The notes below the pieces were generated by a model. The model was not told where the DNA came from. It did no database searches and was given only the letters and a program-made list of their open reading frames with translations. This document shows positions 13,066 to 17,648 of a stretch of 17,719 nt of DNA, in pieces. Position 1 is the first letter of the stretch, and every line of letters starts with the position of its first letter. This DNA is from Candidatus Sigynarchaeum calidifontis (lineage in GTDB: Archaea > Asgardarchaeota > Lokiarchaeia > Sigyniarchaeales > Sigyniarchaeaceae). The stretch lies in assembly GCA_030587475.2 (NCBI GenBank), contig JAUQYZ020000251.1:1-17719 (forward strand), in the 5' to 3' direction. The translations under genes and the position numbers were made by a program.

Positions 13066-13083
13066 CCCGATCCCATTATCCAT

Positions 13084-13207
13084 GCGCCAGTAGCTTAGCA
13101 CATGATCTCCATCCCGTCCTTGCCAAGCGAAGTGCCACGGAGATTACATCGGATAAAGCATTTGTTTCACGAGCAAATAATCGTTGGTTCGATTCCAACC
13201 TGGCGCA
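13084..13207 (+). tRNA. trnV: tRNA-Val(CAC) with a ~50-nt structured D-loop insertion (about 13100-13148) carrying the repeated RNA motif
   Basis: GCGCCAG/CTGGCGC, D stem GCTT/AAGC, TTTGT-TTCACGA-GCAAA, GTTGG-TTCGATT-CCAAC; insert closed by ATCTCC/GGAGAT. Confidence 0.82.
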
Positions 13208-14246: not shown

Positions 14247-14323
14247 GCAGTGATAGGCTAGCTGGGAAACCGCCCGGCTGAAAACCGGGACGTCGAGTGG
14301 TTCGAGTCCACTTCACTGCACCA
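14247..14323 (+). tRNA. trnF: tRNA-Phe(GAA)
   Basis: GCAGTGA/TCACTGC, CCCGG-CTGAAAA-CCGGG, AGTGG-TTCGAGT-CCACT, ACCA. Confidence 0.9.
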
Positions 14324-14348
14324 CCTTCCAATTCCACGTCGTACCTGC

Positions 14349-14428
14349 GAGCTCGTCGCCTAGCCAGGCAAGGGCAGCGGGCTTTTAACCCGTCTAGTTT
14401 GCGAGTTCAAATCTCGCCGAGCTCGCCA
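14349..14428 (+). tRNA. trnK: tRNA-Lys(TTT), 7-nt variable loop
   Basis: GAGCTCG/CGAGCTC, GCGGG-CTTTTAA-CCCGT, GCGAG-TTCAAAT-CTCGC, GCCA. Confidence 0.9.
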
Positions 14429-14477
14429 TTCTTTCTACAAATTCGAGGTGATTGACCGAGTAAGCCAACATCCACGA

Positions 14478-14610
14478 GGGCGGCCGCCGCCGTGCATCCG
14501 GGCCCGTGTTTCCACAACTGTCCTCTCCGAGAGGTGCCGTGGAAACTACATCGGCCACAGACTGTGAATCTGCATAGCCTCCTTGCCCGGCACAAAGGCG
14601 GCGGCCGCCC
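14478..14610 (+). ncRNA. Candidate Y-RNA-like ncRNA A (133 nt)
   Basis: Perfect 14-bp terminal stem GGGCGGCCGCCGCC/GGCGGCGGCCGCCC, inner GTG/CAC and CCGGG/CCCGG, conserved motif 14505-14554, anticodon-like arm CAGA-CTGTGAA-TCTG. Confidence 0.72.
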
Positions 14611-14691
14611 GTTATCCACCGCGATGATTCGAGGGGCACCACGACACGCGTGGCCCGATTCGGGCCACCACTTCTCTCCCCATTAGTCTTC

Positions 14692-14771
14692 GGGCTTGTC
14701 TCCTAGCCAGGCCAGGGAGGCGGACTCTTAATCCGCTCGTACCGCGAGTTCGATTCTCGCCAAGCCCACCA
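14692..14771 (+). tRNA. trnK: tRNA-Lys(CTT), 7-nt variable loop
   Basis: GGGCTTG/CAAGCCC, GCGGA-CTCTTAA-TCCGC, GCGAG-TTCGATT-CTCGC, ACCA. Confidence 0.9.
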
Positions 14772-15156
14772 AATATTCGTTGATACCCAAAATTCGCCGC
14801 CCGGAGCATTACCACCTGGAGTACGCGAGTGCAATGCTCGCCCGGGCGTGAAACGCTTGCCACCACGCGCCGCGGGGCGCTACCGGGGGGTTCTCACCGC
14901 CAAGTCCCCGTCCAGCGATCGCCTGCAGCGCCCGGTTCCAAGCAGGCTCGTTTTCCCCGGCGCGCCCGTCGGTGCGAGGCGCGCCGGAGCCCATCCCTTT
15001 CACGATCCATGCACGATTCTCGGTCCAAAAACGGCCAATTTCCCGCCGGAAGCACACGCCGCCTGTCGTAGCGGGTGAAAGCCCCGCGCAGGCGAACATG
15101 GATGCATCGGGCATCCAGGTTACCAACAACTGCGACCCACCCGGTCGCATTCCCCC

Positions 15157-15301
15157 GCATAGACGCAGCCGTGGACACGCGGAAGGGGGCCACGTGTTTC
15201 TGCATCCTGTCCTTCGCAAGGAGGTGCCGCGGAAACTACATCGTCACTCGAAAAGACGCTCCGGCCCCACACCGCGCCACAAGGGCTGTCTCGTGCAACC
15301 A
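15157..15301 (+). ncRNA. Candidate Y-RNA-like ncRNA B (~145 nt, ends in ACCA)
   Basis: Nested stems AGAC..AGCC/GGCTGTCT, GTGG/CCAC, GCGG/CCGC, GGGGCC/GGCCCC; conserved motif 15193-15243 with a compensatory change relative to ncRNA A and a GCAA tetraloop. Confidence 0.72.
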
Positions 15302-15357
15302 ATTTTTCGCACGTGATGGAAAACAACGACAGCACCAATCGCAACACCTGCGAAACG

Positions 15358-15379
15358 ACTGTCCTCGAACAAGAGGTGA
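15358..15379 (+). promoter_or_regulatory. Shine-Dalgarno (GAGGTGA) of the Ro60 gene inside a copy of the motif's apical hairpin
   Basis: ACTGT-CCTC-GAACAA-GAGG-TGA, about 10 nt before ATG 15389; compare AACTGT-CCTC-TCCGA-GAGG-TGCC in ncRNA A. Confidence 0.6.
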
Positions 15380-15388
15380 AAAAACAAT

Positions 15389-16948
15389 ATGGCAAGAAGC
15401 AAGTTCGGCAAGAAGGCTTCGATCGCGACCGACTATGGCGACGCTGACACCAGGAACTACGAGGCCTTCCCTGCCTGGTCGATGCCGCTCGACGAGCAAT
15501 TCCGCCAGCTCGCCTTCAACGGCATCATCGCGCACCAGTTCTACTGCAGCGAGGACGAGATCCTCCGGAGGGGCATGGGCATCATCGACAAGTTCGTCAA
15601 GGAAAACCCGGCGAAAGCGCTCGAGATCGCCGCGACCGCGCGCAACGAGGGCTTCATCCGTTCGGTCAACATCACCACGCTCGCCAAGGCAAGCACCAGC
15701 ACCGGGGCATTCAAGGAGTACTTCGACAAGATCGTCCTCACCCCGCGGGACATGGTGCAGTTCATCGACGTGATGCGCGCGAGCCGCGGCCTCGGCCGTG
15801 CCATCAAGGAGACCATGAACAAGTGGGTCGCGGCCAAGCTCGACGAGTTCTGGGCGATCAAGTATCGCAACCAGCTCCAGGACAGCATCCGGCTCGGTCA
15901 CGCCAAGTTCGACGACGAGGCCAAGGCCATGCTCGCCGACTATGTCATGGAGAACGGCGAGCAGGCGAAGCGCGACGCCATCGTGGCACGCTTCCCGGCC
16001 ATCAACGCGGTTGAAATGCTCAAGCGCATCAACCCGCTCGTCGACGAGGGTCGCGCCATCGATCTCATCACCGCGGCCCGCCTCGATTGGAACGTGGTCA
16101 AGGGCATCTTCCACCCGACCCCGGACATCTGGAAGGCCCTCGCGGAGCAGATGTCGGCCATTGCCCTCGTCCAGAACATCGCGTCGATCGAGAGGAACGC
16201 GGGCGCCGACTTCGCGCTCGATATCGTCAAGCGCAAGGTCACCGCGGAGTTTCTCAGGCGCGGCAAGGTCTTCCCGTTCACCCTCGCGCAGGCCTACATG
16301 CACGTCAACGACCGAGCCCTCAAGTCCGCCATCGGCAAGGTGCTCGACTCGCTGGCCCTCGCGCACGACTTCAGCAAGCTCGGCCGCGTCGCCGTGTGCC
16401 CGGACGTCAGCGGCTCGATGACCAGCCCGAGCTTCATCAACATCGTTATGCAACGTGCAAGCGGCAAAGGTGGCAAAGGTGACATCCCGGAGGGCAGCAT
16501 GCACGTGCCCATCCAGGTCGCGGCCATGATCGCGGGCATCCTCGCCGGCGCCACCCGCCACTCGCGGCTCCTCGCGTGGGACACCGAGGTCATGGACGAG
16601 CGCGCCCTCTTCGGCAAGGACAAGGAGTGGCGCACCCCGACCCGCATCATGGAGCGACTCATGCGCATCACCGGCGGCGGCACCTTCATGGAGGCCCCGG
16701 TCAAGTACCTCGTCGAGCACCGCGTCGACGTCGACACGTTCGTCCTCGTCACCGACTCGGAGGAGTGGGGCGAGGGTTGGCTCGCCTACTGGAAGAAATA
16801 CAAGCAGTCGCACAAGGCCGCGCGGGCGTTCCTCGTCAGGGTCGACCTCTACCCGACCCGCCCGTTCGGTGGCGACGACTGCGAGCGGCTTGGCATCACG
16901 CAGATCTACGGCTTCAGCGAGATGGCCTTCAAGGTCATGCTCCAGTAA
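15389..16948 (+). CDS. rsr: Ro60/Rsr-like TROVE-domain RNA-binding protein with C-terminal vWA domain
   Basis: N-terminal 'NYEAFPAW', QFY, 'ARNEG.IRS', 'GLGRAIK..WV', 'IKYRN..D.IRLGH', 'ALVQNI', 'VFPF' TROVE motifs; MIDAS DVSGSM, GGT, VTDSE; 519 aa. Confidence 0.9.
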   Translation: MARSKFGKKASIATDYGDADTRNYEAFPAWSMPLDEQFRQLAFNGIIAHQFYCSEDEILRRGMGIIDKFVKENPAKALEIAATARNEGFIRSVNITTLAKASTSTGAFKEYFDKIVLTPRDMVQFIDVMRASRGLGRAIKETMNKWVAAKLDEFWAIKYRNQLQDSIRLGHAKFDDEAKAMLADYVMENGEQAKRDAIVARFPAINAVEMLKRINPLVDEGRAIDLITAARLDWNVVKGIFHPTPDIWKALAEQMSAIALVQNIASIERNAGADFALDIVKRKVTAEFLRRGKVFPFTLAQAYMHVNDRALKSAIGKVLDSLALAHDFSKLGRVAVCPDVSGSMTSPSFINIVMQRASGKGGKGDIPEGSMHVPIQVAAMIAGILAGATRHSRLLAWDTEVMDERALFGKDKEWRTPTRIMERLMRITGGGTFMEAPVKYLVEHRVDVDTFVLVTDSEEWGEGWLAYWKKYKQSHKAARAFLVRVDLYPTRPFGGDDCERLGITQIYGFSEMAFKVMLQ

Positions 16949-17299: not shown

Positions 17300-17373
17300 G
17301 TGCGGGTAGTCTTAACCTGGCAAAACCACCGGTTTGCAACCGGATGACTCGGGGTTCAAATTTCAACCCAATA
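17300..17373 (+). pseudogene. Degenerate tRNA-Ala(TGC)
   Basis: CCGG-TTTGCAA-CCGG arm and GGTTCAAAT are intact, but the T stem and acceptor stem are largely unpaired. Confidence 0.6.
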
Positions 17374-17466
17374 TATAGGCTGGATGGATGTCCCCGCCCG
17401 TACACTTCTCGAGGAATCCATACGGGAGACTCGCCAGGCGGGTCCACATTGCAGCATTCTTTCAGC

Positions 17467-17552: not shown

Positions 17553-17648
17553 GGAACCGTAGCTTAACCGGGAAAGTGGTTTCATCCACACCGACAGCCC
17601 CCGACCGAAGCTCGGGCGTTCGGCGATCGAGGCGCCGCGGTTCCACCA
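17553..17648 (+). tRNA. tRNA-like gene (GAA anticodon, C33) with a ~21-nt D-region insertion and T-loop ATCGAGG
   Basis: GGAACCG/CGGTTCC+ACCA, CCCGA-CCGAAGC-TCGGG, CGGCG-ATCGAGG-CGCCG; extra hairpin GTGG-TTTCAT-CCAC. Confidence 0.7.

Follow-up and report, generated by a model that had tools for sequence, protein, structure and literature searches.

Which RNA might serve as the partner of Ro60 in an Asgard archaeon, and how would it be made? These questions are raised by a contig of Candidatus Sigynarchaeum calidifontis (JAUQYZ020000251.1) on which a Ro60/Rsr orthologue (gene rsr) is encoded within an array of tRNA genes. A first-pass annotation had proposed a non-coding RNA (ncRNA) gene, hereafter ncRNA B, at positions 15157-15301 of the forward strand, immediately upstream of rsr and in an arrangement likened to the linkage of rsr and yrl in bacteria. 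The window analysed here is the whole contig of 17,719 bases, part of a 4.99-Mb metagenome-assembled Asgard genome that is 89% complete. We consider it on balance probable that ncRNA B is the counterpart of a Y RNA in this archaeon: a 106-nucleotide (nt) RNA that is excised, possibly circularised, and acts as the partner of Ro60. Our literature search, beyond which lay most subscription papers and all supplements, found Y RNAs described only in animals and bacteria and none in archaea, and no paper joining bulge-helix-bulge (BHB) motifs or circular RNA with Y RNAs. TROVE/Ro60 genes have been noted in Asgard viruses (10.1101/2021.07.29.454249) and in Borgs (PMC11208441), in the accessible parts of both texts without an RNA partner.

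The predicted RNA and its relatives

ncRNA B is very likely a real and conserved RNA gene. As had been claimed, the region folds into a long interrupted rod, the minimum free energy (MFE) of which is -62.1 kcal/mol compared with a mean of -48.8 kcal/mol for shuffled sequences (z -3.46), and none of 200 shuffles folds as well. The rod ends 87 nt before the start of a genuine TROVE and vWA gene on the same strand, in agreement with the position immediately upstream of Ro60 that the first-pass annotation had given. Its apex side carries the motif that B was said to have in common with a second RNA of the window, ncRNA A, namely a repeat of 23 nt with 96% identity to 14531-14553, and A folds in the same way as B (z -4.15). 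Two finer details of the proposed structure were recovered as well: the GCAA cap loop, closed by CCUUC/GGAGG, and the compensatory change from A-U to G-C relative to copy A, which is found in helix 1 at alignment columns 38:66 (GC in three rows, AU in two).

Two metagenome loci, L086 and L088, whose Ro60 proteins are 89% and 71% identical to that of the window, possess the same order of tRNA genes, Y-like elements, Ro60 and more tRNA genes. L086 holds an orthologue of B, and L088 an A-type, a B-type and a third copy, with the B orthologues located ~100 nt before Ro60. The element B is conserved in both loci with compensatory changes, and its structure is thus kept in relatives. A covariance model built from the five full copies (R1; three loci, two paralogue types) matched only A and B in the 5-Mb host genome, plus a weak match at 13083-13207. 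ORFs (open reading frames) overlapping B had no family match at or above threshold. Directly upstream of B no promoter-like, AT-rich box was seen by eye and a scan for sigma-70-type promoters found none, which fits a release of the RNA by processing. As a side observation, copy A is covered by a DNA contig from a close relative that differs at 2 of 150 bases, and in this contig 133 other letters replace 24 between A and tRNA-Lys(CUU) (14635-14660).

A predicted splicing signal around ncRNA B

Archaeal BHB motifs consist, according to the accessible text of PMC4090602, of two 3-nt bulges on opposite strands with a 4-bp helix between them and further helices on the flanks. ncRNA B has exactly this canonical 3-4-3 geometry, with GCAGCC-GUGG-(ACA)-CGCGG as 5' strand and CCGCG-CCAC-(AAG)-GGCUGU as 3' strand (bulges in brackets). 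The geometry was predicted unaided by RNAalifold from the five full copies, in which all 75 pair cells of the three BHB helices are standard and six of the 15 pairs are changed on both sides, compared with 30-47% pairing and no pair changed on both sides in slid controls. Bulges of exactly 3 nt and a central helix H of 4 bp are found in all five, with bulge letters AUC/AAA, AAU/AGG and, three times, ACA/AAG; the last pair of H is G-C in B-type and C-G in A-type copies.

The handedness of the motif, with H before the bulge on each strand when read 5' to 3', equals that of the intron of tRNA-Arg(UCU) in the same genome (C181:10807-10912), whereas on the reverse strand of B the motif would be a mirror image. 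For this tRNA, the mature anticodon loop points to cuts after the second bulge nucleotide, and the same cuts would yield products of 106 nt from B (15177-15282) and 98 nt from A (14498-14595) and not the discrete RNA of ~140 nt that had been expected. Folded as a circle, the predicted excised RNA of B keeps the same structure (-35.9 kcal/mol), with its inner stem closed by a 7-nt loop, and the joined flanks left after its removal still form a hairpin. A reading of these joined flanks as a tRNA minihelix with CCA was rejected, as the loop does not resemble a T loop and the CCA shows no conservation.

The host genome encodes the splicing enzymes that such processing would use, with three matches over the cut-off to the EndA family (PF01974) and one to RtcB (PF01139, 569 bits). 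Excision of B at the BHB is probable. A circular rather than linear form of the excised RNA is possible by analogy with archaeal tRNA introns and pre-rRNAs, for which circularisation of the BHB-excised RNA is known from the accessible portions of PMC4090602, PMC7038931, PMC12918454 and 10.64898/2026.03.23.713588.

A hairpin module linked to Ro60 genes

The core of the predicted product is a 54-nt hairpin module that is homologous to Ro60-linked modules of Chloroflexi. It is made up, in order, of the 8-bp helix 1, a conserved internal loop of asymmetric shape (..UGU / UGCC), a cap stem of 5 bp (CCUYN/NRAGG), the run GGAGGUG and a single-stranded tail CUAC-AUCG. Chloroflexi and related metagenome loci have this hairpin, with its strands in the same order, upstream of Ro60. 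Of the 273 pair cells in 21 aligned modules (15 Chloroflexi-type and 6 Asgard), 92.7% hold standard pairs, as against 41-53% with a slid partner strand; five of 13 pairs show changes on both sides, none of 500 shuffles reaches the covariation score, and in CUAC (15236-15239) the pattern U.C is invariant. A covariance model of this alignment (R2) was run over both strands of the window and 164 Ro60 loci, 879,230 bases in all. At E<=0.1 it returned 34 matches in loci of Asgard archaea and Chloroflexi, every one on the Ro60 strand, 33 of them upstream of Ro60 and 13 outside the training set. The homology of the core to RNA modules linked to bacterial Ro60 genes supports the proposed likeness to the rsr-yrl linkage. 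As a whole, B is likely a homologue of Ro60-linked RNAs.

The Chloroflexi copies belong to tRNA-shaped RNAs that are complete, with acceptor stem, D arm and T arm, except that the module stands where the anticodon arm would be. The Rfam tRNA model matches several of these RNAs as "tRNAs" of 104-149 nt. Eight Chloroflexi-type loci (L012, L017, L018, L019, L021, L025, L097 and L100) possess tandem arrays of up to seven copies upstream of Ro60. We found no name for these RNAs in the literature, and the supplementary candidate lists of PMC4201824 may already include them. The permuted order of YrlA, GAGGUG...GGRGNUACUUCG with hairpins resembling T and D arms after it, is seen in several copies at an Anaerolineae locus (L020:1300-2140), and the Chloroflexota thus include both topologies. 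A weak R2 match (E 0.06) with GAACUACAUCG was seen at L013:6465-6515, 2.4 kb downstream of a Lentisphaerae Ro60 gene. Within the window itself, a third and divergent copy of the module was detected with the R2 filters off. It lies within a tRNA-Val(CAC)-like gene, in the D region (Table 1), and this gene (13084-13207) would be a tRNA-shaped carrier of the module hairpin.

A quick maximum-likelihood tree was calculated for 57 Ro60 proteins without eukaryotes (34 from the ~160 Ro60 loci and 23 from a set of 32 database proteins, picked so as to represent the groups). The window protein falls into a clade (starred in the tree) with Asgard-named proteins, which is sister to the module-sharing Chloroflexota clade (support of 81 in the Shimodaira-Hasegawa-like approximate likelihood ratio test, SH-aLRT). 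These sister clades and their common module suggest that the Ro60 protein and the RNA module travel together. Ro60 proteins of Lentisphaerota and Kiritimatiellota were nested inside the Asgard-containing clade, which hints at a transfer of Ro60 between archaea and these two phyla.

The leader of rsr contains a further, smaller hairpin copying the cap stem of the module together with flanking letters (Table 1). Its 3' strand GAGGUG (15373-15378) is the ribosome-binding site of rsr, 10 nt before the AUG, and the hairpin is kept in L088 though the remaining leader of that locus is unrelated. This mimicry of the module suggests autoregulation by Ro60.

Table 1. Coordinates of ncRNA B, its parts and related features of the window
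Feature	Position	Strand	Basis
Outermost part of the rod, GCAU-A-GA-C; flanking "exon", outside the predicted product	15157-15164	+	MFE fold; pairs with 15290-15296
BHB outer helix h, 5' strand GCAGCC; partner strand 15284-15289 (GGCUGU)	15165-15170	+	6 pairs, 3 of them compensatory; pairing complete (100%) in all 5 sequences
BHB central helix H of 4 bp, 5' strand GUGG; partner strand 15277-15280 (CCAC)	15171-15174	+	Conserved pairing
5' three-nucleotide bulge ACA; predicted EndA cut 15176/15177	15175-15177	+	Position from the tRNA-Arg intron control, +/-1 nt
Predicted excised RNA, 106 nt, linear or circular	15177-15282	+	BHB geometry
Inner helix h' CGCGG (with 15272-15276), 3x3 internal loop, helix GGGGCC (with 15263-15268)	15178-15191	+	Fold, alignment
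Ro60-locus-linked 54-nt hairpin module	15193-15246	+	Model R2, 52.4 bits, E 1.9e-8
Helix 1 of the module	15196-15203 with 15229-15236	+	8 bp
Cap stem CCUUC/GGAGG of the module with GCAA loop (15216-15219)	15211-15215 with 15220-15224	+	Fold
Module internal loop AUCCUGU / UGCC; run GGAGGUG; tail CUAC-AUCG	Tail 15236-15243	+	Alignment with Chloroflexi copies
Hairpin 2, CGUC/GACG, loop ACUCGAAAA	15242-15258	+	Fold
3' strand CCAC of H and 3' bulge AAG; predicted cut 15282/15283	15277-15283	+	BHB geometry
Outer helix, 3' strand, with extension of the rod	15284-15296	+	MFE fold
AACCA, then T5 run (15303-15307)	15297-15307	+	Sequence; ACCA = 15298-15301
ncRNA A, paralogue with the same module (14505-14556) and the same BHB	14486-14602	+	Predicted product 14498-14595, 98 nt
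Third, divergent module copy in the D region of a tRNA-Val(CAC)-like gene (13084-13207)	13102-13154	+	R2, filters off, 17.7 bits, E 0.0058
rsr leader hairpin ACGACUGUCCUC-GAACAA-GAGGUG, copying module cap stem and flanking letters	15355-15378	+	Repeat match; kept in L086 and L088
Ro60/Rsr orthologue rsr, 519 aa, TROVE and vWA with DxSxS	15389-16948	+	Pfam, PHROG and PDB matches, alignment

Comparison with known RNAs

The closest bacterial model is YrlA, the Rfam consensus of which reads, from 5' to 3', as a stem strand with the proposed Rsr-binding motif, AUGC, the helix strand GGGGAA, CUAc and a tRNA-like domain, with the partner strand UUCCCC at the 3' side. In the accessible text of Chen et al. 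(2014, PMC4201824), YrlA RNAs have a conserved YUAY and, on the 5' strand, the Rsr-binding motif GNCGAAN0-1G, which is likened there to the vertebrate GGUCCGA contacted by Ro60. The part of Wang et al. (2018, 10.1101/312249) that is accessible calls the YrlA helix an "anticodon stem" and describes YrlA as resembling circularly permuted tRNAs. Like YrlA, B adjoins rsr on the same strand and occurs in more than one copy per locus. It also shows the corresponding order GGAGG-UGCC-GCGGAAA-CUAC, i.e. a purine-rich 5'-strand motif, an internal loop, an anticodon-stem helix of the GGAA/UUCC type and YUAY, and its hairpin 2 is the positional equivalent of the variable V arm. Unlike YrlA, however, B lacks a T arm, a D arm and a closed acceptor stem and has only hairpin 2 and the closing stem in their place; its partner strands lie 5' and its stem is capped by GCAA, whereas the YrlA stem holds the 5' and 3' ends; and B is framed by a BHB in an archaeal host. 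Because it has neither the tRNA-like body nor the literal motif nor the Rfam score, we do not file B as a member of YrlA. By homology, it may nevertheless work like YrlA on the Ro60 side.

With the tRNA-shaped RNAs of Herpetosiphonaceae and other Chloroflexi, B has in common the 54-nt module, the position upstream of Ro60, the presence of several copies and the sister relationship of the Ro60 clades, but the full tRNA-like body of the former, often ending in CCA, is replaced in B by the BHB-bearing rod. Known archaeal BHB-excised RNAs comprise, in the accessible text of PMC4090602, tRNA introns, of which the one in tRNA-Trp holds a box C/D RNA, and circular pre-16S and pre-23S rRNA. B resembles them in its long processing stem, the two 3-nt bulges around a 4-bp helix, a functional RNA inside and the presence of EndA and RtcB in the genome, and differs in its cargo, a Ro60-linked module, and in that its excision is predicted from the motif. 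The metazoan Y RNAs (RF00019) are comparable as well: B is a putative partner of Ro60 with a candidate Ro60-binding stem that contains a purine-rich strand (cf. GGUCCGA in the accessible text of PMC4201824) and with a variable effector part. On the other hand, B has no sequence or model match to them, needs no 3' oligo-U of the RNA polymerase III kind, and differs in topology and biogenesis.

A proposed route to a Ro60 partner RNA

These likenesses can be arranged into a pathway. B would be transcribed from the plus strand together with the tRNA array, the rsr leader or both. Its long rod would present the BHB to EndA, which is predicted from the motif to cut in both 3-nt bulges, after 15176 and after 15282. 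RtcB would then seal the flanks and, judging from tRNA introns and pre-rRNA, probably join the ends of the 106-nt RNA into a circle. The excised RNA would consist of the 54-nt module, the variable second hairpin and the closing stem; the module is proposed to dock Ro60, and hairpin 2 with the closing stem would replace the tRNA-like effector domain of bacterial YrlA. If B is circular, its apparent permutation relative to YrlA is removed.

Several observations weigh against this explanation. Binding of Ro60 by B is deduced from linkage and homology only, and the circular form from analogy only. The literal motif GNCGAAN0-1G is absent, its place in B being taken by GGAGGUG(CC), and the Rfam models YrlA and Y_RNA give no match at E<=10 in 14400-15420; the same library finds YrlA in a Comamonas locus (L045) with 71.5 bits, the gathering threshold of YrlA (RF02553) being 69 bits. 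R1 matched none of four other Asgard genomes with Ro60, and the distant Asgard Ro60 loci L004, L007, L089, L166 and L167 are without a confident module or BHB. The best of these, L004, has a look-alike GAGGUG...GGGAAUACAUCG ~150 nt upstream of Ro60 that reaches an R2 E of only 0.95. Moreover, the second copy of L088 (L088:877-929, R2 41.7 bits) has the module within an 8-bp outer helix without BHB, so not every module copy is framed by the splicing signal, and the conservation of the BHB comes from only five related sequences of three loci and two paralogue types.

BHB patterns are also frequent in the genome. Loose patterns (4-bp flanks) number 15 in the window against a shuffle mean of 11.35; with flanks of 6 and 5 bp and G-U allowed, about half of the genome, up to contig C136, yields 801 BHB and 749 mirror patterns; under strict criteria (Watson-Crick pairs in H, no more than one G-U, span 60-160) both strands of the 4.99 Mb contain 21 BHB and 22 mirror patterns. 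There is thus no genome-wide excess, and the case rests on position, conservation and covariation. Two of the 21 strict matches are A and B, both of which enclose the module in the same register. A search of sequencing runs returned 20 with at most 13% of the sampled window words in common, and two RNA and two DNA runs (shares 0.05-0.13) were examined over the window as contigs. The RNA contigs, from relatives, cover only 14300-14434 (tRNA) and 15370-15498 (rsr start) with 90-95% likeness; no contig of these RNA or DNA runs lies over B, and no bulge joint or back-joint is found among them. Copy A is covered by the relative's DNA contig and by no RNA contig.

Alternative explanations

In line with the annotation, B could be a linear Y-like or tRNA-like RNA of ~140 nt with a 3' end in ACCA and an anticodon-like loop. 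Its ends would then be made by transcription or by RNase P/Z-type processing, and the BHB would be incidental. Rod, ACCA and hairpin 2 are all present, downstream of the rod both the window and L086 have a T5 run (L088 lacks it), and BHB-shaped patterns do arise by chance. However, the terminal ACCA, real in the window, is absent in L086 (AACCGG) and in copy 3 of L088 (AAUCGA) and lies outside the predicted product. The loop described as Ser(CGA)-type is not supported: hairpin 2 as folded has a 9-nt loop, and a 7-nt loop CU-CGA-AA appears only in an alternative drawing with a 5-pair stem and an A.A mismatch. Such a CUNNNAA loop can be drawn in four of the six Asgard copies, but its triplet is not conserved (CGA, UGA and GCU in three B-type copies, GUG in A), and in L086, the closest orthologue, a C.A mismatch interrupts the stem of hairpin 2. 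Nor was any tRNA character found, as ARAGORN and the Rfam tRNA model are empty in 15157-15301, where acceptor, D and T arms are lacking, and there is no Y RNA match. Considering also the exact 3-4-3 geometry with compensatory changes in all five full copies, we regard a linear RNA of this kind as quite unlikely.

A mainly cis-acting role is unlikely as well. Instead of a stable partner RNA acting in trans, B would then be a BHB intron or leader element of the rsr transcript that controls the synthesis of Ro60, e.g. through binding of Ro60 to the module in the precursor. The nearly fixed distance from the end of the outer helix to the start of rsr (99 nt in the window, 98 nt in L086 and 106 nt in L088) would agree with such a role, as would the ribosome-binding site within the conserved mimic of the module cap stem and the lack of a visible promoter for B. 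Against it stand copy A, which has the same design and is parted from rsr by a tRNA gene and ~790 nt, and the Chloroflexi homologues, which are tRNA-shaped stand-alone RNAs in tandem arrays. Control in cis is compatible with an excised partner RNA and does not exclude it. Finally, B might have nothing to do with Ro60. It could serve as spacer or processing stem in the tRNA array around it, or be a decayed tRNA, the remnant of a mobile element or, given the long ORFs overlapping it on both strands, a coding sequence. This is highly improbable, since those ORFs lack family matches above threshold, substitutions in the stems are compensatory, no further copy exists in the genome and every copy of the module detected in the Ro60 loci searched, archaeal or bacterial, lies beside a Ro60 gene and on its strand. 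An excised Y RNA counterpart remains the explanation that we prefer.

Genomic setting

The left part of the window contains ordinary cellular genes (ammonium transporter, KaiC-like ATPase, radical SAM, CitMHS, HpaB, URO-D-like and PIN). From 11601 onward follow 19 tRNA genes, all on the plus strand, which amount to 19 of the 41 tRNA calls made by ARAGORN genome-wide; both B and the Ro60 ORF sit inside this array. Several of its tRNAs are duplicated elsewhere in the genome, i.e. Trp (C9), Ala-CGC and Pro-CGG (C49) and Gln-UUG (C251), and CCA is encoded by many. The array looks like an accessory set.

The identity of the Ro60 ORF is supported by Pfam (vWA_Ro60 1.1e-7, TROVE 2.1e-7), by the PHROG category "RNA-binding protein" (1.3e-16) and by PDB matches to Deinococcus radiodurans Rsr (2nvo, 6.5e-10) and Ro60 (1yvp, 5.6e-7), with 9nen also matched. 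Its DxSxS motif is invariant in an alignment of 23 homologues. The named closest database relatives are from Sigynarchaeota, Freyarchaeota and Promethearchaeota, and Ro60 is rare in the host phylum, with five of 400 genomes positive when searched with the window protein (E<=1e-10).

Other structured stretches were seen in the array. At 14797-14850 an acceptor-like stem GCCCGG...CCGGGC encloses a repeat resembling a T arm (14824-14842; 84% identity with those of both tRNA-Lys genes), which may be a tRNA fragment or minihelix. A possible tRNA-Cys(GCA)-like gene was recognised by eye at 17300-17412, its T-loop region split by ~30 nt and without an ARAGORN or Rfam call. The tRNA-like gene of 96 nt at 17553-17648, with a 7-bp acceptor stem, ACCA and irregular arms, is called tRNA-Trp by ARAGORN and has no match in Rfam. 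The spacer 14772-15164 does not fold significantly better than shuffles (z -1.73), and a group II intron domain at 15069-15131 (Rfam, 16.4 bits against a threshold of 49) was taken as chance. A phage origin of the locus was rejected: blastn of 14430-15400 against a phage collection was empty, viral contigs held no related loci, and the genes on the left are cellular. Eight stretches of viral contigs with the motif of B, none of them matched by R1, were AT-rich, coding-like by eye and without the hairpin, and were likewise taken as chance.

Implications for Ro60 and Y RNAs

A more far-reaching reading is tentative, and we hold it to be possible though somewhat doubtful: Asgard archaea would make circular Y RNAs via the tRNA-splicing machinery, B would be a BHB intron of a precursor that bears the Ro60 message too, a single splicing event would yield both the Ro60 partner and the mature rsr leader, and Ro60 would throttle its own translation via the leader hairpin that mimics its docking site. 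If true, this would give a mechanistic root to the unexplained association of Ro60, Y RNA and RtcB in bacteria. The scaffold of Y RNAs, moreover, could then be permuted freely around a single hairpin that docks Ro60, with its ends placed in the stem (YrlA), in the acceptor stem (Chloroflexi), inside the D loop of a tRNA (the tRNA-Val copy) or nowhere (the circle).

Asgard archaea are the closest prokaryotic relatives of eukaryotes, and a Ro60 partner RNA in this group would close the archaeal gap in the described distribution of Y RNAs. Its release by EndA, possibly as an exonuclease-proof circle, would be a new route to a Y RNA and would tie Ro60 to RtcB-dependent ligation. The common module, as judged from its sequence, is a concrete candidate for a Ro60-docking element conserved across two domains of life.

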